A program made the position numbers and the translations under genes. From an uncultured Methanosarcinales archaeon (GTDB lineage Archaea; Nanobdellota; Nanobdellia; Woesearchaeales; DSVV01): 64,000 nt of DNA. Location: positions 319-64,318 of the forward strand of contig CAYXZQ010000002.1 in assembly GCA_964469935.1 (NCBI GenBank), read 5' to 3'. The notes beneath the pieces are model-generated. The model saw nothing but the letters and a program-made list of their open reading frames with translations. It did no database searches and was not told the DNA's origin. Shown one piece after another: positions 37,557 through 49,383 of this stretch (the stretch's first letter is position 1; each line of letters begins with the position of its first letter).

Positions 37557-39473
37557 ATGGCAGACCCCGAGCTTGAGAACCTCAAAAAACAGATACTCGA
37601 ATATAACCCGAAGGCCGACATTGCGCTTGTCGAGAAGGCGTACAAGTACGCGAAGATAGCCCACGAGGGCCAGGTGAGGGAGTCAGGCGAGCCTTATTTC
37701 AACCATCCCATCGGGATTGCTAGGATACTCATAGGGCTCAAGGTTCAGTCGACGACGATATGCGGCGCGCTTCTCCATGACGTCGTCGAGGAATCGAAGG
37801 TCAGCCTCAAGAAGGTGAAGGACGAATTCGGCCCCGAGATAGCCTCTCTCGTTGAGGGCGTCACGAAGATAGACAAGGTCCATTTCGAGAGCAAGCAGGA
37901 CTACACAGCAGAGAATCTCAGGAAGGTGCTGCTCGCGACTGCAAAGGACATAAGGATAATGCTCATAAAGCTTGCCGACAGGCTGCACAACATGCGGACC
38001 CTTAAATCCCTGAGGGAGGACAAGCAGAAGAGGATTGCAGAGGAGACCCTGAACATATATGCGCCCATAGCCCATAAGCTTGGCGTCTGGCACATAAAAG
38101 GAGAGCTTGAGGACCTCTCGCTCCGGTACCTTGACCCCGAGGCGTACCAGATGCTCAGGGACAGGATAAACGAGAAGCGCGAAGAGCGCGAAAAGAAGAC
38201 AAAGGAGTTCATAAGGACCATAAAGAAGAAGCTCAGGGCCCATGACATCGAGGCAGAGGTCAACGGCAGGGCCAAGTACTTCTACAGCATATACAAGAAG
38301 ATGAAGAAGAAGAACGTGGACTTCAGCGAGATATACGACCTGATTGCCATAAGGATAATAACAAAGAGCATCCCTGACTGCTATGCCGCCCTGGGCATAC
38401 TCCACGACACCTGGAAGCCCATTCCCAAGAAATTCAAGGACTACATAGCCACCCCCAAGGCGAACGGCTACCAGAGCCTGCACACAGCGCTTGTCGGGAG
38501 CCACGGCAAGATACTCGAGGTGCAGATAAGGACAGAGGAGATGCACCAGATCGCAGAGGATGGAATCGCGGCTCACTGGAGGTACAAGGGCACAGAGAGG
38601 GACAAGCAGTTCGACAGGAAGATATCATGGATAAAGCAGGTGCTCGACTGGAGGCAGTCGGCAAAGGATGCAGAGGATTTCATGGAGACCCTCAAGATTG
38701 ACCTCTTCGAGAAGGAGATAATAGTATTCACGCCCAAGGGCGACCCGATATCCCTGCCGGAGCACTCGACTCCCGTGGATTTCGCATATGAGATTCATAC
38801 GAACATCGGCAACCACTGCTCAAAGGCGCTGGTGAACGAGAAGCTGGTCACGCTTGACACAGAGCTCATGCCAGGCGATGTCATCGAGATAGTTACGATG
38901 AAGAATGCAAAGCCATCGAGGCAGTGGCTCAAGTTCGTCAAGACCAGCAAGGCCAAGGGCAAGATAAGGGCCATACTGAACATCGAGAAGGAGCATGACC
39001 CGAAGACCAGGAAGGAGGAGGAGCTCCCTGAAAATCGGGCGAAGATGATAGATATCATCGGCAAGGACGTGCCGATAAAGATATCCAAATGCTGCGATCC
39101 CAGGCCGTATGATTATATCGAGGGATTTTATACAAAAGACGGGAAGATAACTGTCCACAAGAAAGGCTGTCCCAATGTCCATTCCCTTGACCAGAACAAG
39201 AAGGCTGTCGTTCACTGGAAAAAGGAATCAGGGGACAGGTTCAAGGAATTCAAGATCATTGCTCAGGATAGGGTGGGGATGATAGCTGAAATACTCAACT
39301 TCCTCGTCGCCTTAAAGCTCAATGTGGAGAAGCTCAACACCAGCACGACAAAGCATGGCAGGTTCATGCTGAACCTGGGAGTCTCTTTGGATAAGGAAGA
39401 GACAGTTGCCGAACTCATAGCAAAGCTCAAGGAGATAAAGGGCGTCTTCGATGTCATGGAGTTCAAGGGCTAG
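37557..39473 (+). CDS. Full-length RelA/SpoT homolog with HD hydrolase, (p)ppGpp synthetase, TGS and ACT domains.
   Basis: HD domain: 'HEGQVRESGEPYFNHPIGIA...LLHDVVE'. Synthetase: 'FYSIYKKM...DLIAIRII...DCYAALGILHDTWKPIPKKFKDYIATPKANGYQSLHT...EVQIRTEEMH...AAHWRYK'. TGS: 'IIVFTPKGDPISLPEHSTPVDFAYEIHT'. There is a C-terminal ACT-like 'IIAQDRVGMIAEI'. Start MADPELENL. Confidence 0.8.
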   Translation: MADPELENLKKQILEYNPKADIALVEKAYKYAKIAHEGQVRESGEPYFNHPIGIARILIGLKVQSTTICGALLHDVVEESKVSLKKVKDEFGPEIASLVEGVTKIDKVHFESKQDYTAENLRKVLLATAKDIRIMLIKLADRLHNMRTLKSLREDKQKRIAEETLNIYAPIAHKLGVWHIKGELEDLSLRYLDPEAYQMLRDRINEKREEREKKTKEFIRTIKKKLRAHDIEAEVNGRAKYFYSIYKKMKKKNVDFSEIYDLIAIRIITKSIPDCYAALGILHDTWKPIPKKFKDYIATPKANGYQSLHTALVGSHGKILEVQIRTEEMHQIAEDGIAAHWRYKGTERDKQFDRKISWIKQVLDWRQSAKDAEDFMETLKIDLFEKEIIVFTPKGDPISLPEHSTPVDFAYEIHTNIGNHCSKALVNEKLVTLDTELMPGDVIEIVTMKNAKPSRQWLKFVKTSKAKGKIRAILNIEKEHDPKTRKEEELPENRAKMIDIIGKDVPIKISKCCDPRPYDYIEGFYTKDGKITVHKKGCPNVHSLDQNKKAVVHWKKESGDRFKEFKIIAQDRVGMIAEILNFLVALKLNVEKLNTSTTKHGRFMLNLGVSLDKEETVAELIAKLKEIKGVFDVMEFKG

Positions 39474-40504
39474 ATAAGCCTTCTTGCAAGCAGGAGCAGG
39501 CTAGGGTGCCTCAGGACAAGCCTTGGCAGGAGCTTTGCAGCCTCATCCCTGCCGTACCTGGAAAAAGCTGTCTTCTCGTCCTTGAGGACCCTTACAAGCC
39601 TGTCATAATCCTTGTCGCTGAACCTGCTGAGCACCTTTCTTATCAGGAGATGCGCGTGCAGCTCTTTGCCTGCTGCCCTGCGCCATCGCTTCTCGTAGTC
39701 CTGCCTGCTGATTATCGAGCCTGCAAGGGCGTGGGCGCATGCTAGGCCCGGGACGATTCCGCCGCCTGTCGATGCCTTTACCTGTCCTGCAGCATCCCCT
39801 ACTATGTAGATGTTTCCCTTCTGTGTCGTCAGTTTCGGGTCATATAGAGGTATCATCCCGGCCTGATAGCCTTCGATCTTCCTGATTTTTAGTCTTTTGA
39901 CGAGTTTCTGAAAAAGAGGCCCGGTATTCCTGTACGATGCGCATCCTATCCTTGCAGTGCTGCTGTCCTCCGGCACTACCCAGGCGAAGAAATCCGGTGC
40001 AACGCTTCCGACATACGCCTTGAAAACCCCTGGCTCGAACTCGCCTCTTACAGTAGCCTGCTTGCCTACCAGAAACGCGGTCTTTTTCCCCGGGTTGAGC
40101 ATGACCCTGACGAAGCTGCCCGGGCCGTCTGCGCCGATGGTTATGCTTCTCGGGTCTATCCTGCTGACCCTCCTGCCGAGAAATATCCTAGCACCCGCAT
40201 CCCTTGCCAAGTCAGCCAGGCTCCTGTCAAAGGCCGCACGGTCGATCACTATGTCATCCACAGGGAGCACGGCTCTCTCATTCGCTGAAATTATCTCGGC
40301 CTTCCTTATCCTGTTCACTGCCACACCTTTTTTTAAGCCAGCATATCTCGTGATGCCTGATGTGACTATGCCTGTGCACTGCACAGGAGACCCTATCTCC
40401 CTATGCTCCTCGTACACCCTGACCCTCTTTCCTGCCTTTGCGAGGGCTTCAGCAGCATAGAGCCCTGCAGGACCGGCGCCTATTATGTTTATCATAGTAA
40501 TCAT
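39470..40504 (-). CDS. Geranylgeranyl reductase family FAD-dependent oxidoreductase.
   Basis: 'IIGAGPAGLYAAEALAKAGKRVRVYEE' (FAD GxGxxG). 'CTGIVTS' matches the GGR family. It is 344 aa. Confidence 0.65.
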   Translation of the reverse strand: MITMINIIGAGPAGLYAAEALAKAGKRVRVYEEHREIGSPVQCTGIVTSGITRYAGLKKGVAVNRIRKAEIISANERAVLPVDDIVIDRAAFDRSLADLARDAGARIFLGRRVSRIDPRSITIGADGPGSFVRVMLNPGKKTAFLVGKQATVRGEFEPGVFKAYVGSVAPDFFAWVVPEDSSTARIGCASYRNTGPLFQKLVKRLKIRKIEGYQAGMIPLYDPKLTTQKGNIYIVGDAAGQVKASTGGGIVPGLACAHALAGSIISRQDYEKRWRRAAGKELHAHLLIRKVLSRFSDKDYDRLVRVLKDEKTAFSRYGRDEAAKLLPRLVLRHPSLLLLARRLI

Positions 40505-40694
40505 GAGGAAACTTGAAATTTATAAAATATGATGCATTTTCTGCATTATTGTCCGCCACCTCCAACCCTTTTGAGAATGGAGAATAAGTAACTACTGCAA
40601 AACAGTAACTAAATCGAAAGATTTATATATGTAATGTACTTACTTTTGATGATTTTGGTGTATAATCTTAAAAATATCAGGGGGTAAATGGAAA

Positions 40695-42005
40695 ATGAAG
40701 TATGTGAAACTGATAATCGTGATGGCACTGGTATTCACTTTGACAGCAGTGAGCCTGGCAAGCGCTTTGCCGGTTACTATTGACAAGGTCAAGATCGACG
40801 GCGATACAATACTGCCGACCAGCGCTGATTTCACCAGGTCTCTTGACAGGGACAATTCTTTCGACATCAAGGTCGAGGTGACGGCCCAGCAGGATGTGAA
40901 GGATGCCCAGATAGAGGTCTATCTCAGGGGCTACGACCATCCGGACCTGATCCAGGACATATCGGATGTATTCAATATGAAGGCCAACAGGACATATGTC
41001 AAGACCTTCACGCTGACATTCCCATACAAGCTGGACAAGGACCAGTACAAGCTGAGGGTAAGGGTCGAGAACCGCGACGGCGACTCTACTGAGCAGAATT
41101 ACGAGCTCGGCATAGAATCCGAGAGGCATGACATGATAATCAAGGACGTCCTGTTCTCACCATCCGATTCTGTCGAGGCAGGCAGGTCTCTTCTGACATC
41201 GATAAGGCTTGAGAACACTGGCATGACTGACCCAGAAGAGGGTGTGAAAGTCATGATAAAAATCCCGTCTCTGGGCATCTCAGCAGCCGACTACATCGAC
41301 AAGATAGATGAGGATGAGTCGACGACCTCTGAAGAGCTCTATCTCAGGATTCCCGAGTGCACAAAACCAGGGACCTATGACGCTGTCATAACTGCGACAT
41401 ACCATGATGGGGACAAGACCGCTTCAGTGGATAAGCAGGTGAAGATTACAGACGGCGATCTCTGCACTTCGGGCCAGCAGCCCACGACTGAGCCTGCAAC
41501 GCCCAAGACCATAATCACGGTCGGGCCGACAGCCCAGGATGTAACCCAGGGCCAGGGCGGAGTCATATACCCGCTTACGATATCCAATGCAGGGACAGCA
41601 GCAAAGACCTATGTGATAACCGCTGAGGGCTATGCTGACTGGGCTGACGTGAGCATGAACCCGGCAAACATCGTCGTGCTTCAGCCGGGAGAGGCAAAAG
41701 TGCTATATGTCTACCTCTCCGCGCATCAGGATGCTTCAGTAGGCCAGCATATGTTCATGATAAGTGTCGCTTCAGGCACAGAGACCCTCAAGCAGTTCTC
41801 GCTGACAGCAAATGTTGTACAGGGACAGCAGCAGACTACGACGACCACGACAGATCTCGGCGGCATCAAGAAGGTGCTTGAGATAGGTCTCGTGGTGCTT
41901 GTTGTGCTTCTGGTCATACTGGGACTGATAATCGGTTTCAGCAGGCTCAGGGGAAGCGACGAGGACATTGAGGACGACGAAGGCAAAAGTGAGACATATT
42001 ATTGA
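40695..42005 (+). CDS. Secreted surface protein with a signal peptide, CARDB/Ig-like repeats, a Thr-rich stalk and a C-terminal TM anchor.
   Basis: N-terminal 'MKYVKLIIVMALVFTLTAVSLASA'. Thr-run 'QQQTTTTTTD'. C-terminal hydrophobic 'VLEIGLVVLVVLLVILGLIIGF' followed by an acidic tail. Confidence 0.55.
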   Translation: MKYVKLIIVMALVFTLTAVSLASALPVTIDKVKIDGDTILPTSADFTRSLDRDNSFDIKVEVTAQQDVKDAQIEVYLRGYDHPDLIQDISDVFNMKANRTYVKTFTLTFPYKLDKDQYKLRVRVENRDGDSTEQNYELGIESERHDMIIKDVLFSPSDSVEAGRSLLTSIRLENTGMTDPEEGVKVMIKIPSLGISAADYIDKIDEDESTTSEELYLRIPECTKPGTYDAVITATYHDGDKTASVDKQVKITDGDLCTSGQQPTTEPATPKTIITVGPTAQDVTQGQGGVIYPLTISNAGTAAKTYVITAEGYADWADVSMNPANIVVLQPGEAKVLYVYLSAHQDASVGQHMFMISVASGTETLKQFSLTANVVQGQQQTTTTTTDLGGIKKVLEIGLVVLVVLLVILGLIIGFSRLRGSDEDIEDDEGKSETYY

Positions 42006-44218
42006 TTTTTTTCATTTACTTTCTCTTTGTCTTTAGTTTCTTGTACTGGAGCCCGGTGTCGCAGATGAGCCTTAAGAAAAGATACGCCTCGTTGATATTC
42101 TCATTGATATTGATTCTTGTATTCTTCTCAGCAGTTTCAGTTGCGACAGCTGGGGACTTCACCGCTTCGTCGAACCATGGGAGAATCACGCTCTGCAGGG
42201 GCGACATGTACCAGGACACTGTCACTGTCACCAGCACGGACCAGGCACCTGGGGCTTTTTCAGTATCGCCCTCCGAGAATTGGGCGCAGGTCGTCCCCCA
42301 GGGTTTCATCCTCGGGCCGGCAGGTGCGCAGGATGTTGTAGATTTCATCAGGCCCCCTCTGCAGGCAGGAACATATGAGCTCAGGACGACCATATCGTCC
42401 GGGACAGTAACAAAGGTCCTGACGCAGACAATAGAGGTCAGGGACTGCGAGAACACGAAGGTCCAGGTATTCCAGCAGGAAGCCACGATCTGCCCGTGCA
42501 CTCCCGCGCTGTACATATTCAACATAACCAATACAGGGACCTTCACCGATACCTATGACCTGGGCATCGATGCTGAACCGACATTCTACACCCTGAGCGA
42601 GAATCCGGTCGTCGTCAGACCCGGCAGGTCCAGGGCGGTCTATGCGTATTTCAACTTTCCCTGCAGCCAGTACGGCAGGGCGAGCATGCATTTCATCACA
42701 GAGGCAAGGCTTTCGGGCGAGAGGACAGAGACCGGCTTTAATATCGACATCAGTAGGGGATGTTACGATTACAGCCTGGATGCAGGGGATGCGTTAAATC
42801 TCAGCACAAACAAGACTTCGGCCAAGTTCGTCCCCTCTGCAAATGCAAAGTACAGCCTCTGTTACGGGACTGATTACGAGATACCTGTCAGGGTCAGGAA
42901 CACCGCGAATGTTAGCAACATATTCAGGTTGTCATCAGACCTCACGATCGACGGGAATAAAATGGAGATGCCTTCAGGGACGACTGCATACACGTATGTC
43001 CTTGTCCAGGGCATGGAGCCCGGATTCTATAACCGTATGATTAATTCAGTGTCCCTCAGGGGCAATATCGTCAAGAGCCTGCCCTTGGCGATAAACATAA
43101 GCCCGTGCGGGAATGCCAGCCTGTTGCAAGGACCCTCTGCGCAGTTCAGCGGGCTGAGAATAGCACTCTTTGTGCTTCTTGCTGTTTTGATTGTGCTTAT
43201 TGTCCTGTTTGCATTGATCTTCCCCAGGGCGAAGAGATGGCTCTGGAAAAGGGAGCAGAAAAGGCTGGCAGATGAAGGGTTGCAAGGCAGGGCAAGAAAG
43301 TTCCTTGCCGTGCATAAGAGACCGGTGACCGCCGTCATTGTCATACTGCTCCTTGTCCTTGTCACGATCGCTTCATATTACCTGCTGAGAAACCTGGGAA
43401 TAGACATGGTCGGGCTGGAATGGGGCATTCTAGGATCGATGTTCGCATTCGCTTCGCAGCATATGCTGTATGTGATTCTTGATATCGTGCTCCTTGCGAT
43501 AATCATCGCCTGCATCCTCTGGTTGCCGAAGCTGCTTGCCATGATGCAGAGAAGATGGAAGGAGAAGAGAGAAAGGGCGGACATCGTCCTTGAGAAGTAT
43601 CCGAAGGAGAGAAGCAGCAGCATGTGGATGTTTGTCGTTGTAATTGTCGTTGTGGTCTTCTTCCTATTGTCCTCGCTATGCTTCTTCACGACAGTCTGCA
43701 AAAATGCCGGCCTGAACATAGAGATAACGCATCCCGCGAACACGACCAACCAGACCCAGCTCAATGAGACTGCTGGTTATATCGTCGAGAATTCCACTGT
43801 CTACATATGGAACAAGAATACTGTAAAGGAGATTGACCTGTCAAGATACATAATCAACCAGGACAATGTTACGCTCCAGTACATATTCACCCCTGTAGAG
43901 AACATGACCGTGCAGATATCCGATCAGGGAATCGTGACACTTACTCCCGACAGGGGCTGGTTCGGCCACAGGGTGATGAACTTCATAATCGACGACGGAA
44001 GGGGGAACAGGGTGATAAGCCCTGATATAGACCTGTACGTTCTCGACGTCAATAGGACCTTTGCAGACCGGCTCACTGATTTCCTCGCTGTATATGTCAA
44101 TTACATCATAATCGGGCTCCTTTTCATTGTCATCGTCGTCATACTTCTGATATTGTTCACCAAGAAGCCGGGCAGGAAGAAAAGGATCCTCGTCAGGCGA
44201 AAGGGCCGGGACAGCTGA
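42002..44218 (+). CDS. Large polytopic surface/membrane protein (738 aa) with Cys-containing extracellular segments and many N-x-S/T sequons.
   Basis: N-terminal TM, then a roughly 330-aa extracellular region, then several TM helices, a second sequon-dense extracellular region ('NTTNQTQLNETAGYIVENSTVY') and a final TM. It overlaps the previous gene by 4 nt. Confidence 0.45.
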   Translation: MIFFIYFLFVFSFLYWSPVSQMSLKKRYASLIFSLILILVFFSAVSVATAGDFTASSNHGRITLCRGDMYQDTVTVTSTDQAPGAFSVSPSENWAQVVPQGFILGPAGAQDVVDFIRPPLQAGTYELRTTISSGTVTKVLTQTIEVRDCENTKVQVFQQEATICPCTPALYIFNITNTGTFTDTYDLGIDAEPTFYTLSENPVVVRPGRSRAVYAYFNFPCSQYGRASMHFITEARLSGERTETGFNIDISRGCYDYSLDAGDALNLSTNKTSAKFVPSANAKYSLCYGTDYEIPVRVRNTANVSNIFRLSSDLTIDGNKMEMPSGTTAYTYVLVQGMEPGFYNRMINSVSLRGNIVKSLPLAINISPCGNASLLQGPSAQFSGLRIALFVLLAVLIVLIVLFALIFPRAKRWLWKREQKRLADEGLQGRARKFLAVHKRPVTAVIVILLLVLVTIASYYLLRNLGIDMVGLEWGILGSMFAFASQHMLYVILDIVLLAIIIACILWLPKLLAMMQRRWKEKRERADIVLEKYPKERSSSMWMFVVVIVVVVFFLLSSLCFFTTVCKNAGLNIEITHPANTTNQTQLNETAGYIVENSTVYIWNKNTVKEIDLSRYIINQDNVTLQYIFTPVENMTVQISDQGIVTLTPDRGWFGHRVMNFIIDDGRGNRVISPDIDLYVLDVNRTFADRLTDFLAVYVNYIIIGLLFIVIVVILLILFTKKPGRKKRILVRRKGRDS

Positions 44219-44277
44219 AAAGCTTAAAGGGAAAAATTAATAAGGAGACAGCCAGTTCTGGATTTTTAGCCGTTTTT

Positions 44278-44427
44278 GGGGGCGTAGTTTAACCTGGCTA
44301 GAATAACTGGCTCCAGTGCTCTGGAGCGATGAGGGGAAGCGATTTCCCGATGACTTTAGGTCTGGTATGGCTCTTTTTTAAGGGCGAGAGATACCAGTTG
44401 ATCTGGGTTCAAATCCCAGCGTCCCCA
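44278..44427 (+). tRNA. tRNA-Trp (anticodon CCA) interrupted by a ~76-nt intron at the canonical 37/38 position (about 44317-44392).
   Basis: Acceptor GGGGGCG pairs with CGUCCCC (one G-U pair). U8 is present. D-arm GUUU/AACCUGGCUA/GAAU. Anticodon stem ACUGG/CCAGU. The anticodon loop C-U-C-C-A-G|intron|A is the canonical tRNA-Trp loop CUCCAGA. The T-arm is CUGGG-UUCAAAU-CCCAG and the discriminator is A. Confidence 0.6.
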
Positions 44428-44510
44428 TTTCACTTCGTTCAATGGGTCCCCGGGATTTGAAATACTCAAAAATCAAAGATTTTTGGCACCGCTCGAGCAA
44501 GCTCTCGTGG

Positions 44511-44526
44511 AATCCCAGCGTCCCCA
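44511..44526 (+). repeat. Exact 16-nt direct repeat of the tRNA-Trp 3' end ('aatcccagcgtcccca'), 84 nt downstream of the gene. Between the two copies lies an inverted tRNA-3'-like fragment at 44444-44461. Possible att-site remnant.
   Basis: 44412-44427 and 44511-44526 are identical. 44444-44461 'gggtccccgggatttgaa' is the reverse complement of a T-loop/acceptor-like 'ttcaaatcccggggaccc'. Confidence 0.5.
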
Positions 44527-44576
44527 CTCATTTCATTCTATCTATAAAATGCATATCCAATAATTTTCAAATAATT

Positions 44577-46508
44577 CTAGAATCCGGGCGGTGAGTTGCC
44601 GTCGTCGCGTTTTTGAGGGGCCTGGGGCATCCTTTGCTGGAGTTTCCTGTGTATCCTGCTGGTTATGACCAGGTTGGAGATGTTGACGACGATGAGGAAC
44701 AGTATGACTGCAAGGTATATTATCTCGTTCGAATGGCTTCTTATGCCCGATATTATGGTTATGATGGGCGATGTGAATGCGCCGTCGACCTTGAGCGGGT
44801 CTAAACCCACGATGTATAGGTCAGTGACCCTGTATGGGCCTGTGCCGTTGACCTTGTACGAGAGGTCCCAGCTGTAGTTTGCAGGCGCTGTGGCGTCAGG
44901 CCCGAACTTCGGCCCGAGGGACGAGTTCATGGTCCCTTTCCATTGTATGTCCCACCTGTAGGACATGCCGTAATAGTCGCTTCCCGGGCTCCCGACCGAA
45001 AGGTTCGAGCAGCCGCTCCCTCCAAGTGCGCACGAGTAGTAAGATGGTGACATGTTCCAGATTCCGAAGTCGTTCGGGACAAAGTCGTACACAGTCACCT
45101 TCTCGAACTGCGGGGTCCAGCCGTTTCCGATATTCTCGACGTGTATCTTGACCTGGTACTGGTCCTCTCCTATGTTGGTTATGTTCTTGGCGATCTGGAG
45201 CCAGTAGCCGTGGACGACGTAGATGTACTTGAGGTATGTGTCATTGCCGCTGACGCTCATTGTGTAGTTTACGATCTGGCCGGACATGTCGGAAATCAGG
45301 TATTCCGGTTTCATCCAGACGATGGGCGGCGGATACGCCGAGCTTGAGCCGTCTGTGTAGTTGAATGTCCATACGTAGCTGGAGTTCCCCCATGGCTTTG
45401 TTATGTTTATCTCCTGGAGCGGCGAGCCTGTGAAATTTTTTCCCAAGAGCCCCCATAGGGTCCCGGCAGTCGTGTTTGTCGGGTCCTGGTTCTGCGTGAC
45501 CCATAGCGAAACCTTGTTGAGATTATAGGATATGTTCACGGGGACTGTCACCCTCGGCGTGATCTCCCAGGTCACATTATGGTTCTGCTCGTTGTCGCTC
45601 GGCTTGATTATCCGCTTGTCGAAGTCGAAATCGACCTGGGAGCTGGCGTTTATGTCGTCTATCGTCAGGTTCGAGAGCAGGGTGTTGACCACCAGGAATT
45701 CAACCCTCTCTTTGAGGGCAAGGTATGTGGCAGTGAACGGGACGCTCAGCGGAGCGGTCATATTGTACCTGATGCTTGTGTTCCTGTGCCATGCAATCGT
45801 CCCGCCGCTGGGTGCCCACCACCAGGAGACATTGGATGTCCCGTTCCCATGGACATTGGCAAAATCCTTGTATGGATACAGGTTATTGAGATAGAAGCTG
45901 AACTGTGTCGAATTCCATACCACGTCTGCGGCAGTCATCGAGATGTTTATGTTCGTTACGCTTACGTTTATCTGGTTGTCGTTTCTCACAGTCTGGTTGA
46001 TTGTCCATTCATGGCCTGAAAGCACCTTCCTGTCGAAACCGTGCTCGAAATTATAGTAGTTAGTTATGACGTTCACAGGCGGGTCGACGCCCATGCACGA
46101 TATATTGTACCTGAATAATGAATTATCGCCCTGTCTCAGTTCAGGTACAAACAGTATTATCTCTGTTCCTGGCTGGCCTGATGTCTGGTTGCCGAACTTT
46201 GTAGTGTTGTCCCAGGTGAAGTTTGTCGAAAGTCCGCCTGTGTTCCTGAATGACACATGTATGTCATAAATTGTCTCATTGTTCGGGTTTGTGATGTTCA
46301 CTGTTCCAAGGCTGTAGCACGATTTCTGCCATTCAGTGAGCGTGAAGTTCTCTGCAAAGCTTGTCTGCTGGAAGACCTGTTCTGTGATGGAGACATTGAT
46401 GTGAGTGCCGAAATCCGCGCTCACGTTGAAGAAGCACATGATGAAGAAGAGTATGGAGCAAAAGAATAGAACGAGCCTGCCCTTATTCCTCTTTTTTAGG
46501 GGATTCAT
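44577..46508 (-). CDS. S-layer-like surface glycoprotein candidate with a signal peptide, about 34 N-glycosylation sequons and a C-terminal TM anchor with a basic tail.
   Basis: N-terminal 'LVLFFCSILFFIMCFFNVSA'. N-x-S/T motifs counted by eye, for example 'NFTWDNTTKFGNQTSG' and 'NVSVTNINISMT'. C-terminal 'IIYLAVILFLIVVNISNLVI' followed by 'RIHRKLQQR'. A TATA-rich region lies upstream at 46509-46594. Confidence 0.6.
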   Translation of the reverse strand: MNPLKKRNKGRLVLFFCSILFFIMCFFNVSADFGTHINVSITEQVFQQTSFAENFTLTEWQKSCYSLGTVNITNPNNETIYDIHVSFRNTGGLSTNFTWDNTTKFGNQTSGQPGTEIILFVPELRQGDNSLFRYNISCMGVDPPVNVITNYYNFEHGFDRKVLSGHEWTINQTVRNDNQINVSVTNINISMTAADVVWNSTQFSFYLNNLYPYKDFANVHGNGTSNVSWWWAPSGGTIAWHRNTSIRYNMTAPLSVPFTATYLALKERVEFLVVNTLLSNLTIDDINASSQVDFDFDKRIIKPSDNEQNHNVTWEITPRVTVPVNISYNLNKVSLWVTQNQDPTNTTAGTLWGLLGKNFTGSPLQEINITKPWGNSSYVWTFNYTDGSSSAYPPPIVWMKPEYLISDMSGQIVNYTMSVSGNDTYLKYIYVVHGYWLQIAKNITNIGEDQYQVKIHVENIGNGWTPQFEKVTVYDFVPNDFGIWNMSPSYYSCALGGSGCSNLSVGSPGSDYYGMSYRWDIQWKGTMNSSLGPKFGPDATAPANYSWDLSYKVNGTGPYRVTDLYIVGLDPLKVDGAFTSPIITIISGIRSHSNEIIYLAVILFLIVVNISNLVITSRIHRKLQQRMPQAPQKRDDGNSPPGF

Positions 46509-46594
46509 GTTGTCTCTACCAATTTAATATATATATTAATATACTAGGATAACATATATTGTCTAATACCTAGTATATAAATGTTTTGTTTTTT

Positions 46595-46936
46595 TCAGCT
46601 GATTCCAACCAAATCCCCTGTTTTCGATTTGGAACCTGATATTACGCCCTTTCTGGCTTCGATTACGTATTTTGCCTTGTTTTTCGACGTGTAGAAAGTA
46701 AACGGCAGGAAATTCTCCTTTAAGTCGACTATCTTCTTATCCCTGTCCAGGAAGATGACATCGATGGGAAAGAACACGAAGAACATGTGAAGGGATATTC
46801 TCCTCTCCTTCTCGAATATGAACAGGAGGCTCTTTTTGGGCGAGAACATGAGCCCCCTTGCCTTCTCGGGAACGCTCCTGCATTCGGTGAATTCCCCTGC
46901 GATGAGCTTTCCGCTTGTCAGATTCATTATCGCCAT
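46595..46936 (-). CDS. DUF192-family small protein.
   Basis: 113 aa. 'GLMF...LLFIF......ISLHM.FV.FPIDVIFLDRDKKIV' matches the COG1430/DUF192 pattern. Confidence 0.5.
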   Translation of the reverse strand: MAIMNLTSGKLIAGEFTECRSVPEKARGLMFSPKKSLLFIFEKERRISLHMFFVFFPIDVIFLDRDKKIVDLKENFLPFTFYTSKNKAKYVIEARKGVISGSKSKTGDLVGIS

Positions 46937-49383
46937 TTTACCAGGTAGGCGACTGTCCTCAGGGTCTCAGGTCGCGAATTGTCGGCGATGAGCCTGAAAT
47001 CATCAAGGCCATAGCCGTCGAGGACCATCAGCCTTATGTACGTGCTGTCAGCGATGTTCTTGTCGACCACGATCGCGTTGTATTTGTCGCTTCTTGGATA
47101 GATAACCATCGTGTATTCTGACTTGCTGTCATAGCTGAACCTGGTCAGGTTCCCGTCGATGAAGAACCAGAGCCCTGCCAGGTCGACATTGTTATGTCCC
47201 GTCCTAGAGTTGGCAGTGACTTGCGTGCTCCCGACACTGCATGTGAACGTATCATTATCCCTGCTGCAGTCGTAGGCTGTGAAGGCCTTGTAGGTCTTCT
47301 GCTCGTCGCTCGGCAGGTCGAAATCCCAGTATGCGTACTCCTGAACAGTATGGAAGCGGGTGAACATGTCGTCTGTCAGCGCGATATAGGTGACAGGGGC
47401 ATCACAGTGGGTGTATCTGGTGATCCGCCTGTCCTGATTGTTCTGGGCCAGGTATTCGTCAGCCTCTGTCTTGTTGAGCTTCAGGATGCTGTCAAGTACG
47501 CCAATCTTCCCGTTCATCGAGAGGTTGCCCTTCACAAGGCTGAGCGCCTTCTTCTCGCCGTTGCATGAAAGCATCCGGATGATGCCTGCGGAAAGGTTCT
47601 CGTCCGGTGTCATCAGGGCCTTGGCCATCCAGTAGGTCCTTGGCATGCTCGGAGCTGCCTTGAGAAGGACGTCCCTGTCAGACAATGCATAGAAGAAATG
47701 GCCTTTGTCCCACCAGGTGAATATCTTGGCATCAGGAGGGCTTACCTCCCCTATCTTCACGGCAGTGTTGTACAATGAGTCGTCCATCCTGGGCTTGATG
47801 CTCCTGACCGAGCTGTAGTCGGCCATGAACTGGCTCCCGATTATGAAGAGCAGAAGGGCTATGACCAGCACATAGGCAAGCGACCTGATGATGGTGTCCT
47901 TCTGGTCTATCCAATGGATGAATCTCGGTATCGAGTCAATTATCAAAAAAAGGCCGAACCCGAAAAGTATGCATATGTATGGGATGGAGAAAGGGAATAT
48001 CCTTATCGCCTTGAAAGCGGCGGGTATCATGATTGCTGCCGCTGTCAGTGCGAGCAATGGGCCGAAGGGTATGTCCTCCGAATCCGCAGCCCTCCAGAAT
48101 GTATAGGCAGCAGCCAGGAGCACTATCGCCAAAAATACCGGCCCTCCGAGCCTCGGGACCATGTCGCTGAAAGGGAGAGGCTGGAGCTCTGAGATTGATG
48201 AATAGCTGTCCGGCCATACCCCCTGCAGGCTGCCAGAGCCAAGATAAAGCTGTATCTTGGCAGGCATGAAGCCTATGAGAAACTTGAGTCCCAGCAGCAC
48301 TGCGATGACGATTATCAGGCAGACCAACACAAGATAAGCGATGCGCCCATTCGTTGTCTTGTCGGCTGTCAGCTTATTGAAGAGCCAGAGGCCGAGATAG
48401 ACAGCTGAGATGGCAGCAAGCAGGCCTATGACTATGTAATACCCTGTCCACGTGAACCTGAAGAGGAGAAGGAGCAGGACCAGTGATGCCCCTGCTATAA
48501 TCCTGTTCCTCAGCTTTTTCTGGAGAATCAGTTCAAGGAACACCCACGATATCGCGAGCATGAAGAATATGTTGATGGTATTGGTATCGCTCATCCCTGC
48601 AAGGCTGTACTTGAGGAATTCAGGGTGTATGGCAAAGGTTGCGGATGCGATTAAGCCTGCCAGGTCTCCTGCAATCCTCCTTGCAATGAAATATATAGGG
48701 AACATGGTCAATGCCACGAATATCAGCGGGATGTAGAAGCTTGTCGTCATCATTGACACGGTTTTGTTGAAAAGGGAGATGAAATTATGGAAGTAATACT
48801 CGAAGAAAGACAGGAAATCCTCGAGTTTCCCGTCCTTTGCGTTCTTGTAGTAGCTGTAGGGGTCTATGCCGTAGAGGTATATCTGCCCCTGCGGATCCCT
48901 GAAGCTGTCCCTGAGGCTTTCGGCCTTCTGGGCGATCTGCGCCTGGTACTGGTCTATCTTTTCCTTGACCTGCTGGTCTATGAGCTTGGTCTTCTGGTCA
49001 TCGCTGTAATAGGGGTACATCTGGTTGACGTCCTGTGTTATCTGCGGCCTGAATGTGGCGTCGGCAGACATCCTAGCCCAGTCATCCATGAGCGGGAGGC
49101 CTGCGTAATGCAGCCTTACGCCTACTGAGAGGATGATGGACAGGATGATGAAGATGACAGGGGCATATCTCCTGAACCAGGCAGGTGTCTTGAAGGCCTT
49201 GTGGTCTTCCCTTGCCTTCTTCTTTTTTGGACTGCGGGAATGTCTCTTCTTCACCTTCGGCTTTGGCTTCGGCTTATTCATCGCCTTTGACGCAATCTCC
49301 TGCTGCTTCTTCCTTATCATGTCTGCGCGCAGCTCGTTGCTGATGTCTGTGTCCCCTATGTTGTCCATGGGAAATGAAATCAT
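46927..49383 (-). CDS. aglB: Second STT3/AglB-family oligosaccharyltransferase paralog (818 aa) with a Lys/Pro-rich cytoplasmic N-terminus.
   Basis: EL1 'YGIDPYSYYK'. 'TWWDKGHFF' is a WWDYG variant. 13 or more TM helices plus a C-terminal soluble domain. The N-terminus reads 'KPKPKPKVKKRHSRSPKKKKARED'. Confidence 0.75.
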   Translation of the reverse strand: MISFPMDNIGDTDISNELRADMIRKKQQEIASKAMNKPKPKPKVKKRHSRSPKKKKAREDHKAFKTPAWFRRYAPVIFIILSIILSVGVRLHYAGLPLMDDWARMSADATFRPQITQDVNQMYPYYSDDQKTKLIDQQVKEKIDQYQAQIAQKAESLRDSFRDPQGQIYLYGIDPYSYYKNAKDGKLEDFLSFFEYYFHNFISLFNKTVSMMTTSFYIPLIFVALTMFPIYFIARRIAGDLAGLIASATFAIHPEFLKYSLAGMSDTNTINIFFMLAISWVFLELILQKKLRNRIIAGASLVLLLLLFRFTWTGYYIVIGLLAAISAVYLGLWLFNKLTADKTTNGRIAYLVLVCLIIVIAVLLGLKFLIGFMPAKIQLYLGSGSLQGVWPDSYSSISELQPLPFSDMVPRLGGPVFLAIVLLAAAYTFWRAADSEDIPFGPLLALTAAAIMIPAAFKAIRIFPFSIPYICILFGFGLFLIIDSIPRFIHWIDQKDTIIRSLAYVLVIALLLFIIGSQFMADYSSVRSIKPRMDDSLYNTAVKIGEVSPPDAKIFTWWDKGHFFYALSDRDVLLKAAPSMPRTYWMAKALMTPDENLSAGIIRMLSCNGEKKALSLVKGNLSMNGKIGVLDSILKLNKTEADEYLAQNNQDRRITRYTHCDAPVTYIALTDDMFTRFHTVQEYAYWDFDLPSDEQKTYKAFTAYDCSRDNDTFTCSVGSTQVTANSRTGHNNVDLAGLWFFIDGNLTRFSYDSKSEYTMVIYPRSDKYNAIVVDKNIADSTYIRLMVLDGYGLDDFRLIADNSRPETLRTVAYLVKWR

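Follow-up and report, generated by a model that had tools for sequence, protein, structure and literature searches.

We consider it probable that the locus at 44278-44427 of the 64,000-nt stretch of DNA analysed here (the window) is a functional tRNA-Trp(CCA) gene whose intron encodes a circularly permuted box C/D guide RNA with a single K-turn. That a tRNA-Trp intron can direct methylation of the tRNA it interrupts is a textbook peculiarity of Archaea, described for introns with the order C-D'-C'-D. Guiding of the own tRNA is the known part of the system, whereas for the rotated order guide-D-hairpin-C we found no description in the literature within the limits of the papers that could be searched; the finding refines a known system and overturns nothing. 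The rotated form with one K-turn is present in many DPANN genomes, indicating that the guide unit can be rearranged within the intron while keeping its N+5 geometry, in which the target faces the fifth nucleotide counted upstream from box D. It would also explain why such genes are missed by box-based searches and by some tRNA finders.

A split tRNA-Trp gene

The first-pass annotation had placed a tRNA-Trp(CCA) at 44278-44427 on the forward strand (+; all features described below lie on this strand), and the Rfam tRNA model RF00005 matches identical coordinates over its full length (model positions 1-71; 47.6 bits against a gathering score of 29, E = 4.6e-07), with an 80-nt insertion within the anticodon loop. 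According to the cloverleaf drawn from the sequence, the 5' exon (44278-44316) comprises positions 1-37, carries the anticodon CCA at 44313-44315 and ends in C32 U33 C34 C35 A36 G37, while sequence and Rfam match place the 3' exon (positions 38-73) at 44393-44427, beginning at A38. Joining the exons across the boundaries 44316|44317 and 44392|44393 yields the anticodon loop CUCCAGA, and the 76-nt intron (44317-44392) therefore occupies the canonical position 37/38, just as had been annotated; sequence, Rfam match, fold and syntenic relatives agree on this placement. All four tRNA stems are present in an explicit pair list, and from the sequence the gene does not encode the CCA end. ARAGORN called no tRNA at the locus, which may be due to the long intron, and this negative was set aside since Infernal and the manual cloverleaf agree. 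No further tRNA was found in the 64 kb by ARAGORN or the Rfam tRNA model. For an element X located downstream, three readings were tried, namely a tRNA on one or the other strand, the 3' half of a tRNA and a BHB-bounded T-loop intron, and none of them fits.

Three syntenic relatives (L001, L002/L003 and L004) were found through the adjoining AglB/STT3 gene, without regard to the intron, and all have their tRNA-Trp interrupted at the same position by an intron of 69-77 nt. Their AglB proteins are only 45-69% identical, yet the exon and intron features of the tRNA-Trp are maintained. Given these three loci, the feature is not a product of chance.

The probable guide unit and its conservation

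The intron opens with a 12-nt D guide, UGCUCUGGAGCG (44317-44328), followed by box D, AUGA (44329-44332), the hairpin GGGGAA-GCGA-UUUCCC (44333-44348), the K-turn loop nucleotide L1 (G, 44349) and box C, AUGACUU (44350-44356). At the 5' splice site, the hairpin of 6 bp (CUCCAG/CUGGAG, loop UGCU) that had been noted together with two GAUGA strings is present in the minimum free energy (MFE) fold (7 bp with G31-C11) and is the guide:target duplex: nucleotides 44321-44327 pair with G31-G37, setting G 44324, the fifth nucleotide upstream of box D, opposite C34 (44313). The duplex is short, amounting to 7 bp on the pre-tRNA, 8 bp on the mature tRNA and 5-6 bp in many relatives.

Both GAUGA strings (44328-44332 and 44349-44353) had been read at first pass as C-type boxes and the D boxes sought in CUGG and CCGA, a reading that has to be revised. 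The true box D is the AUGA inside the first string, which is CUGA in 8 of 31 relatives, and the second string consists of L1 and the first four nucleotides of box C. The 16 nt between them form the covarying hairpin, the C-stem of the K-turn, which is closed by a loop and stands in place of the terminal stem. Flanking this hairpin, boxes D and C are predicted to form a standard K-turn with the 3-nt bulge G-A-U, the sheared pairs G36.A16 and A37.G15 (intron positions) and then C38.U14 and U39-A13. Box C keeps the R-U-G-A of RUGAUGA and deviates at the last three positions (AUGAUUA being the family consensus); at 3b.3n the window has C.U in place of U.U, and U at 4b offsets the A that opens the AUGA box D. 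Two other ways of pairing this region were discarded: a register with G33.A16/A34.G15 and the bulge C30-C32, and a continuous non-canonical GAUGA/GAUGA helix, both at odds with a G33 that is not conserved and with hairpin pairing that extends up to C32. An Rfam search of 44200-44600 with E <= 10 returned only noise and no C/D or other sRNA family.

For comparison we used an intron-blind metagenome scan, whose pattern still fixed G30 G31 and ACC and which gave 99 unique tRNA-Trp introns, the syntenic loci, and a motif scan of genome contigs. The latter required UGGAGCGAWGA...GATGA and, by its pattern, a leader of <= 8 nt; conservation of these letters in the genome-scan set is therefore circular, and only the metagenome and synteny sets are unbiased. 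The window layout, i.e., a UGGAG-CG-xxGA unit, a hairpin and then N-AUGA-yyn, was found in 31/99 introns. Among these, 19 have AUGA and 8 have CUGA as box D, which is always xxGA; L1 is variable (G16/A9/U6) and is followed by AUGA in 30/31. Another 52 of the 99 are canonical (C - 12 nt - D' - 1-6 nt - C' - 12 nt - D), with C = AUGAUUA in 44/52, D' = CUGA in 52/52, C' = RUGAUGA and D = AUGA in 52/52, the second 12-nt spacer ending in UGGAG-CG and a terminal stem of 2-7 bp enclosing the unit. In these introns N5 pairs with C34 in 52/52 and with C39 in 51/52, and the unit CUGGAGCG-AUGA constitutes their D guide and box D. The exact 5-nt register between the C34-pairing nucleotide and xxGA holds for 31/31 of the unbiased window-type introns, as it does for the 52 canonical ones. 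The suggestion, made at first pass, that the intron belongs to the tradition of archaeal tRNA-Trp box C/D guides is right. Its order guide-D-hairpin-C-guide matches the linear 5'-C-guide-D'-C'-guide-D-3' only after circular rotation, and by its sequence the window intron reads as a circular permutation of the canonical C-D'-C'-D layout.

The helix itself is well conserved in pairing and covaries strongly: 98.6% of C-stem cells are paired in 73 distinct sequences, with pairing that reaches both boxes, 64 cells show double changes and the observed score is attained in 0/500 shuffles. The pair 4b:4n likewise covaries, U-A going with AUGA and G-C with CUGA ([[17,0],[1,4]], Fisher p = 0.0007), and is non-standard in 25/73 sequences, while the GA dinucleotides of the sheared pairs are invariant among the relatives. 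Sequence and covariation together thus argue for a C/D K-turn. The motif scan of genome contigs gave at least 120 stretches, 62 of which pass a strict tRNA test; together with the window and the three syntenic loci, at least 66 loci have the window layout. Where titled, the strict-test loci carry archaeal labels, mostly of DPANN, and none of the bacterial-labelled matches passed.

A second stretch with complementarity to the tRNA, CUGGUAU (44362-44368), pairs in the MFE fold with AU|ACCAG, that is, with the last two intron nucleotides and positions 38-42. Its G at 44365 pairs with C39 (44394), and it competes with the anticodon stem. The proposed search for complementarity to positions 34 and 39 was hence successful on both counts, the intron holding one antisense element for the C34 region (44321-44327 with G31-G37) and one for the position-39 region and the 3' junction. 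Across the family, this second complementarity is higher to the own junction than to shuffled junctions (4.86 vs 3.92 +/- 0.12), and the nucleotide pairing with C39 is fixed at 8-10 nt beyond box C. The spacer that follows box C measures 13 nt in the window vs 12/12 in canonical relatives. Of the relatives having the second guide, 19/37 carry xxGA in the D' register; in the window clade this register reads GCUC (44370-44373), which lacks GA and hence provides no D' box; no C'/D' pair is recognisable in the window intron, which shows neither a C' partner nor a second K-turn or K-loop. Methylation of C39 is doubtful in the window genome, given that the second guide is without a D' box. In the guide conformer the downstream sequence folds into the hairpin GCUCUU-UUUU-AAGGGC (44370-44385); by eye, L004 keeps a helix here with a different sequence. 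A second K-turn around hairpin 3 and UUGA was also tried in relatives with introns of 77-82 nt, and no register gives a 3-nt bulge followed by GA.

Splicing fold and alternative explanations

The fold described so far, with a predicted energy of -53.6 kcal/mol, is incompatible with splicing, as it sequesters both splice sites. An alternative fold, predicted at -47.1 kcal/mol and so 6.5 kcal/mol less stable, places both in 3-nt bulges, A36-G37-U1 and A75-U76-A38 (U1, A75 and U76 being intron nucleotides), with cleavage after the second nucleotide of each. The statement of the first-pass annotation that no recognisable 3-nt bulge holds the 5' splice site thus holds for the lowest-energy fold only, and the motif called bulge-helix-bulge (BHB), whose absence was to speak against the reading, is available in relaxed form exactly at the predicted junctions. 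The strand GAGAGAU (44386-44392), assigned from the pair list and a constrained fold, supplies G70, G72, A73 and G74, which pair with C35, C34, U33 and C32 as central helix with A71 bulged, as well as A75 and U76, which form the 3' bulge with A38; nucleotides 44381-44385 pair in this conformer with intron nucleotides 44318-44322 as helix h'. A strict hBHBh' is not formed, since the 4-bp central helix is broken by the bulged A71 (or a C35.A71 mismatch), and the motif is therefore classed as relaxed BHB; imperfect central helices are the norm across the intron family. Since the guide fold and the relaxed BHB fold exclude each other, the pre-tRNA would have to refold ahead of endonuclease cleavage, which would then take place at G37|U1 and U76|A38. 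The 3' ends GAAGAN/GAGAGAU occur in canonical and permuted introns alike; we also considered them as a C' box and rejected this, because the same end lies outside the sRNA in canonical introns.

We weighed several other explanations of the locus. That it is a non-functional, decaying tRNA-Trp copy with an intron rendered unspliceable by the imperfect BHB is hardly credible. The bulged A or mismatch in the central helix, the energy difference between the two folds and the silence of ARAGORN could be read in this way, but the cloverleaf is intact at 47.6 bits, no other tRNA was found in the 64 kb, synteny and features are kept in relatives with AglB proteins as divergent as 45-69% identity, imperfect central helices are usual in the family and DPANN endonucleases often have broad-substrate-range loops. 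We give equally little credence to a box C/D intron of conventional order, in which the first GAUGA would be box C, the second box C' and CCGA and CUGG degenerate D' and D boxes. Both strings do match the last five letters of RUGAUGA, and conventional order is the rule in haloarchaea and in 52/99 of the sampled introns. However, only 16 nt separate the strings, and these form a covarying hairpin without complementarity to the tRNA; no xxGA box follows about 12 nt after either string; the first box is CUGA, a D box, in relatives; the second GAUGA does not conserve its first G; and the C34 guide precedes the first box, a placement of use to none but a D-type box. Variants of this arrangement, taking GCGA or CCGA for D' and either CUGG or GAGA for D, were discarded because their spacings are impossible and the hairpin between the strings covaries.

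Two further explanations accept the K-turn and differ in what it does. If the guide were active only after excision and circularisation of the intron, joining its 3' end (GAGAGAU, or GAAGAN in relatives) to the 5' guide would put a box resembling C' some 12 nt upstream of box D and thereby give back a C'-guide-D unit of the conventional kind, as has been proposed for the permuted sRNA24 of N. equitans. Archaeal tRNA introns are circularised once excised, and circles of tRNA-Trp introns are stable; a permuted C/D sRNA with correct box order only as a circle provides a precedent, GAAGA resembles GAUGA, the distance across the junction to box D would be 11-14 nt (in the genome-scan set, with its leader of <= 8 nt), and in L004 and L031 a perfect UGAUGA lies 4 nt away from the 3' end. 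Against this, the GAAGAG end is also found in canonical introns, outside the sRNA and as BHB strand, the leader preceding UGGAG ranges over 2-12 nt among the unbiased introns and so obeys no 12-nt rule, no partner GA of D' type is placed for a second K-turn as far as the sequence can be read, and in the shortest introns (L076) the GAAGA-type end overlaps box C. We regard this scenario as improbable. A vestigial or structural element, in which the K-turn and the antisense stretches fold or protect the pre-tRNA or the excised intron without guiding methylation, is unlikely, though less so than the other three. It would agree with the lack of a C'/D' pair and of a D' box for the second guide, with the shortness of the duplexes and with the observation that removal of the intron is not lethal in H. 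volcanii, and a regulatory role in splicing is plausible because the guide fold sequesters both splice sites. A K-turn bound by L7Ae could, for example, act as a chaperone or timer for splicing. What weighs against it is that all 31 window-type introns keep the exact 5-nt register of the 52 canonical ones with their strict 12-nt spacers, that the sheared-pair GA dinucleotides are invariant and that 4b:4n covaries, a pattern of constraint expected of a working C/D K-turn with a guide.

Known guide RNAs and a possible mechanism

The tRNA-Trp intron of Haloferax guides methylation of C34 and U39, and excised tRNA-Trp introns are stable circles. In the haloarchaeal intron, CCCUCUGGAGUU-CCGA directs Cm34 and GCUGAUAU-A-CUGA directs Um39 (PMC2584109 supplement), and the counterparts in the window are CUCUGGAGCG-AUGA and CUGGUAU-G. 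Both systems have in common the host gene, the intron position 37/38, the targets C34 and position 39, the guide cores CUCUGGAG-NN-box D and CUGrUAU-N, a hairpin between a D-type and a C-type box, and guide and splicing folds that exclude each other. They differ in the order of elements, stem-C-[39 guide]-D'-hairpin-C'-[34 guide]-D-stem in Haloferax and [34 guide]-D-hairpin-C-[39 guide]-(no D')-hairpin in the window, in the number of K-turns (two versus one), in the boxes (CCGA/GGACGA versus AUGA/AUGACUU) and in intron length (103-105 nt versus 76 nt). Closer still are the 52 unique canonical-order metagenome introns (66-70 nt, e.g., L130), with which the window intron shares the type of terminal boxes (C = AUGAUUA and D = AUGA), the D guide ...CUGGAGCG, the GAAGAG 3' end and the N+5 targets. 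In those introns the terminal stem is open, the spacers are strictly 12 nt and the C'/D' K-loop is complete (CUGA-3 nt-RUGAUGA), whereas in the window the stem is closed by a loop, the intron starts at the D guide and neither C' nor D' is recognisable. Environmental archaea contain canonical and permuted arrangements side by side with further reduced ones, and these form a series in which the evolution of the intronic guide and its coupling to splicing can be followed.

It is homology to these systems that suggests methylation of C34 by the intron guide. The K-turn would bind L7Ae and then Nop5-fibrillarin, and the guide 5' of box D would pair with the anticodon loop either of its own pre-tRNA (7 bp, with a 4-nt loop) or of the spliced tRNA-Trp (8 bp), so that C34 would face the nucleotide five positions upstream of box D; Cm34 is predicted to result, as it does in Haloferax. 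The anticodon arm's 3' half, together with the 3' splice junction, would be held by the second guide. Of the 51 window ORFs, the 24 scanned encode only glycosylation, NAD-biosynthesis and surface proteins, and fibrillarin, Nop5, L7Ae, EndA and RtcB are not among them; fibrillarin, Nop5 and L7Ae belong to the 38 single-copy archaeal marker genes and are near-universal. DPANN endonucleases, for their part, often carry loops tied to a broad substrate range.

Synthetic half-mer box C/D RNAs, which reportedly were used for crystal structures of the archaeal C/D RNP, also have one K-turn and a single guide extending 5' of box D. They are laboratory constructs, whereas the window RNA would occur naturally, tethered in cis to the substrate by a 3-6-nt loop. 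Half-mer archaeal guides are said to methylate poorly in trans. We tentatively propose, as a reading that may well prove wrong, that the intron forms a natural half-mer RNP acting in cis, which would methylate C34 while the splice sites are closed and would thereby constitute an obligatory checkpoint before splicing. The guide would be joined to its target by the 3-6-nt loop at the 5' splice site and served by one L7Ae-Nop5-fibrillarin unit, or by a dimer of two pre-tRNAs bridged by Nop5. The permutation could have arisen by tandem duplication and subsequent trimming of a conventional intronic sRNA, and the permuted layout might by now be the usual form in a large part of DPANN archaea. With guide and target residing on one molecule, the layout lends itself to testing, in a natural system, which share of the two-fold symmetric C/D RNP is truly required.

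A circularly permuted order of C/D elements relative to the consensus is also known from another DPANN archaeon, in the form of sRNA24 of Nanoarchaeum equitans, a permuted C/D box sRNA for which circular RNA was detected (Randau 2012, PMC3491384). It is encoded by a free-standing gene beside a split protein gene, keeps both box pairs, and circularisation has been proposed to be necessary for it; in contrast, the C/D K-turn of the window is predicted to form without circularisation, as the hairpin closes it. The tRNA-Trp intron of Sulfolobus solfataricus (65 nt), a stable circle with two 7-bp complementarities to positions 34/39 (Danan 2012, PMC3326292), resembles the window intron in its host tRNA, in these complementarities and in its departures from consensus boxes. 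No consensus C or D boxes were recognised in the S. solfataricus intron, whereas that of the window has a clear C/D pair with the predicted capacity to form a K-turn.

An intron-bearing tRNA-Trp gene

The Rfam tRNA model matches 44278-44427 of the window on the forward strand over its whole length (47.6 bits, E = 4.6e-07), with an insertion of 80 nt in the anticodon loop, and these are exactly the coordinates at which the first-pass annotation had placed a tRNA-Trp(CCA) gene; ARAGORN reported no tRNA in the window. All four stems of the exons are paired, the anticodon is CCA and the gene encodes no CCA end. Read from the sequence, the 5' exon (44278-44316, +) ends with C32 U33 C34 C35 A36 G37 and the 3' exon (44393-44427, +) restarts at A38, leaving an intron of 76 nt (44317-44392, +) at 37/38, as had been proposed. 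The CUCCAG/CUGGAG hairpin (loop UGCU) described at that time forms in the minimum-energy fold, lengthened to 7 bp, and both GAUGA strings are present (44328-44332 and 44349-44353).

Relatives were chosen via the neighbouring AglB/STT3 protein, independently of intron content. This protein has a handful of homologues, on whose contigs the order STT3-DUF192-AF2028_C protein-[gap]-large surface proteins is kept, and three independent relatives (AglB identity 69%, 51% and 45%) have a tRNA-Trp gene in this gap, with an intron at the same place (77, 73 and 69 nt). The alignment of these syntenic introns preserves ...CUCCAG|UG(CU)yUGGAGCGAwGAGG...CCGAUGAC, while the segment between the box strings varies in sequence and keeps its self-complementarity (GGGGAA/UUUCCC, GGAA/UUCC, GGCA/UGCC).

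The gene is set in a surface-glycan region (3-29279 and 39470-49383) encoding two NeuB-family sialic-acid-type synthases, a CMP-sugar cytidylyltransferase, a PIG-L deacetylase, GT1/GT2/GT4 glycosyltransferases, a GDP-mannose 4,6-dehydratase, an epimerase and AglB/STT3, with large Ig-like membrane proteins flanking the tRNA on both sides. Also encoded in the window, whose G+C content is ~51%, are NAD synthase and quinolinate phosphoribosyltransferase, which very reduced DPANN genomes do not usually have; the contig of the closest relative measures 1.84 Mb. An A/T-rich block, GGAAAAATTAATAAGGAGA (44233-44246), which precedes the tRNA 5' end by ~32-45 nt, is conserved in the window and in the syntenic loci L001 and L002 and is a candidate archaeal promoter (TATA/BRE); the syntenic locus L004 has TTTATATA in its place.

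Box assignment and K-turn register

Haloarchaeal tRNA-Trp introns have the order stem - C (GGACGA) - ...GCUGAUAU-A - D' (CUGA) - hairpin - C' (UGACGA) - CCCUCUGGAGUU - D (CCGA) - stem, with C34 at N+5 of the D guide and U39 at N+5 of the D' guide (PMC2584109 supplement). According to reviews, Cm34 and Um39 are guided by the intron, H. volcanii can do without it, and tRNA-Trp introns persist as stable circles once excised. Both haloarchaeal guide cores recur in the window intron, as CUCUGGAG-CG followed by AUGA and as CUGGUAU-G, but here the C34 guide stands at the extreme 5' end and the first GAUGA comes after it instead of before.

An exon-only pattern blind to intron content (GGCTCCAG N48-78 ACC...GTTCRAAT) retrieved 99 unique tRNA-Trp introns from metagenome_contigs: 52 canonical, 31 of the window type and 16 others. 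The canonical introns read terminal stem - C - 12 nt - D' - 1-6 nt - C' (RUGAUGA) - 12 nt ending UGGAG-CG - D - stem - GAAGAG; their box C is AUGAUUA in 44/52, D' is CUGA and D is AUGA in 52/52 each, and N5, the fifth nucleotide upstream of box D or D', lies opposite C34 in 52/52 and opposite C39 in 51/52. CUGGAGCG-AUGA constitutes their D guide and box D, and AUGAUUA their box C. In window-type introns, which read leader (2-12 nt) - UGGAG-NN - xxGA - hairpin - N - AUGA - yyn, the same two elements flank a hairpin.

Among the 31 window-type introns of this unbiased set, the first box is always xxGA (AUGA in 19, CUGA in 8, otherwise UCGA, CGGA, AAGA or UUGA), and the second AUGA, found in 30/31, is preceded by G (16), A (9) or U (6). 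The hairpin is paired up to both boxes in 98.6% of cells across 73 distinct sequences, with 64 double-change cells; its covariation score was reached by 0/500 shuffles, and slid registers were only 15-63% paired. The variable nucleotide before AUGA, the xxGA first box and the pairing up to both boxes together fix the K-turn register, in which, judging from sequence comparison, the hairpin would be the C-stem, N-A-U the 3-nt bulge, and the GA of box C and of box D the sheared pairs. The pair following these (4b:4n) is U-A where box D is AUGA and G-C where it is CUGA (table [[17,0],[1,4]], Fisher's p = 0.0007).

On the forward strand of the window, the register taken from relatives assigns 44317-44328 to the D guide, 44329-44332 to box D (AUGA) and 44350-44356 to box C (AUGACUU, with a divergent 3' half); covariation places the C-stem hairpin at 44333-44348, and the nucleotide variable in relatives, L1 of the K-turn loop, is 44349. 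The G at 44324 is the fifth nucleotide upstream of box D and pairs with C34 (44313); the duplex is 7 bp long on the pre-tRNA and 8 bp on the spliced tRNA-Trp, and many relatives form 5-6 bp.

Second guide, probable permutation and splicing

Further downstream, CUGGUAU (44362-44368) is complementary to the last two intron nucleotides and A38-G42, with the G at 44365 opposite C39; in the minimum-energy fold this pairing and the anticodon stem are in competition. In the 70 window-type introns of sufficient length, complementarity to the own junction averaged 4.86 bp; shuffled junctions gave 3.92 +/- 0.12, and at most 4.2 over 200 shuffles. Of the 37 introns complementary to their own junction over >=6 contiguous bp, 36 have the nucleotide opposite C39 at 8-10 nt after box C. 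Introns ending in AU have GGUAU in the second guide, those ending in AG have GGUCU. The D' register is occupied by xxGA (mostly UUGA) in 19/37 introns and by GCUC in the window clade (44370-44373); guided methylation of the window tRNA-Trp is therefore predicted for C34 but, under the standard rule, not for C39.

The order of the window intron, [34 guide]-D-(closed stem)-C-[39 guide]-(D' position)-hairpin-BHB strand, amounts to a rotation of the canonical order, the terminal stem being closed by a loop and the break lying at the point at which the D guide would otherwise adjoin C'. Exactly this order would result if a canonical intronic sRNA were duplicated in tandem and its outer portions then lost. 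A simple swap of guides is the alternative, but the box pair kept is the terminal (AUGAUUA/AUGA) and not the internal one (RUGAUGA/CUGA), which favours permutation. A permuted C/D sRNA gene has a precedent in N. equitans (PMC3491384); for a permuted tRNA-Trp intron guide we found no description in searchable papers, whose incomplete coverage limits any claim of novelty.

The window intron has one K-turn and departs from a conventional box C/D sRNA in its linear box order and second box pair. The guide-intron reading considered in the first-pass annotation is partly supported: the intron would belong functionally to the tRNA-Trp-intron guide tradition, but its GAUGA strings hold box D in one case and L1 plus the start of box C in the other. 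Protein binding, methylation, action in cis or trans and the relative timing of methylation and splicing are points that we infer, and we consider the proposed mechanism as a whole rather likely; the single K-turn, the shortness of the duplexes and the divergent 3' half of box C call for caution. The C/D proteins L7Ae, Nop5 and fibrillarin are near-universal archaeal markers; none was found among the 24 of 51 window ORFs scanned.

With the cloverleaf enforced, the predicted splicing fold has 3-nt bulges A36-G37-U1 and A75-U76-A38, separated by a helix of C35-G70, C34-G72, U33-A73 and C32-G74 with A71 bulged out; the anticodon stem lies on one side of the motif and h' (intron nucleotides 2-6 with 65-69) on the other. 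Cleavage is predicted after the second nucleotide of each bulge, as in a BHB, and we model the motif as a relaxed BHB. The bulge-helix-bulge sought at these junctions is accordingly recovered in relaxed form, with both splice sites in 3-nt bulges, but is predicted to be less stable than the dual-guide fold (-47.1 vs -53.6 kcal/mol). Guide and splicing folds of euryarchaeal pre-tRNA-Trp were reportedly found to be mutually exclusive by Bortolin et al. in 2003, a property that the window pre-tRNA-Trp would share. Imperfect central helices are general among window-type introns, GAAGAN giving a C34.A mismatch and GGCUAN pairing still worse. In DPANN archaea, splicing endonucleases often have an insertion that is linked to the occurrence of disrupted tRNA genes.

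Distribution and the element downstream

A scan of genome_contigs with CTCCAG N1-8 TGGAGCGAWGA N8-30 GATGA gave at least 120 matching stretches, where by rough estimate a few tens are expected by chance; 25 of the matches listed bear bacterial labels. A strict tRNA test (anticodon stem plus T arm downstream) was passed by 66 loci, namely the window, three syntenic loci and 62 of the matches listed, and all of these 62 have archaeal labels (Woesearchaeota, Nanoarchaeota/Nanobdellota, Micrarchaeota, AR15 and unnamed archaea), some being 'uncultured Methanosarcinales' MAGs. Most archaeal loci failing the test are still recognisable tRNA-Trp genes, seven of those among the matches listed passing a relaxed filter; in a few the retrieved stretch stops before the gene does, and many of the remainder, by reading, are interrupted a second time, by an intron in the region of the variable loop or T arm. 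Intron lengths were 34-96 nt among the matches listed, the shortest consisting of guide, AUGA, hairpin, GAUGA and little else.

The label 'uncultured Methanosarcinales archaeon ... binchicken/SRP...' is found on L008, L012, L014 and about 30 other genome_contigs loci. Their tRNA-Trp exons and permuted intron are the same as in MAGs labelled Woesearchaeota or Nanoarchaeota, and the Methanosarcinales label probably serves as a placeholder or is mistaken. The second insertions, of 20-35 nt and presumably additional non-canonical introns, appear to be present in many of the DPANN tRNA-Trp genes whose first intron is permuted, and these genes failed the simple tRNA filter for this reason; the insertions lie after GGAU/GAU (L011, L022, L033, L111), after CUGGG (L041, L070, L078, L095) or inside the T loop (L027, L085).

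Some of the 16 other metagenomic introns are rearranged differently, for example as [39 guide]-CUGA-loop-AUGAUGA-[34 guide] lacking a D box. Such arrangements occur at L135, L156, L168 and L243 and at L136, L145, L148, L207 and L241; a second alternative reads xUGA-hairpin-GAUGAUnA-[34 guide UCUGGAA]-box, the box being CAGA only in L241. Uncultivated archaea have therefore rearranged or reduced the intronic sRNA in multiple ways.

Directly 3' of the tRNA-Trp gene lies an element of ~100 nt (44428-44527), also present at L004, L002, L058, L062, L072, L090 and L112, following tRNA-Trp in distant relatives too, and tandemly repeated in L112 and L090. No copy was found elsewhere in 1.77 Mb of retrieved loci, no Rfam family fits it, and it fits a tRNA on neither strand. 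Within it are a segment complementary to the T loop (GGGATTTGAA), a hairpin that covaries and a GCACC that is conserved, and it ends with an exact second copy of the last 16 nt of the tRNA, AATCCCAGCGTCCCCA (44511-44526); it could be an att-type scar left behind by an integrating element, a remnant of T-arm intron biology or a small structured RNA.
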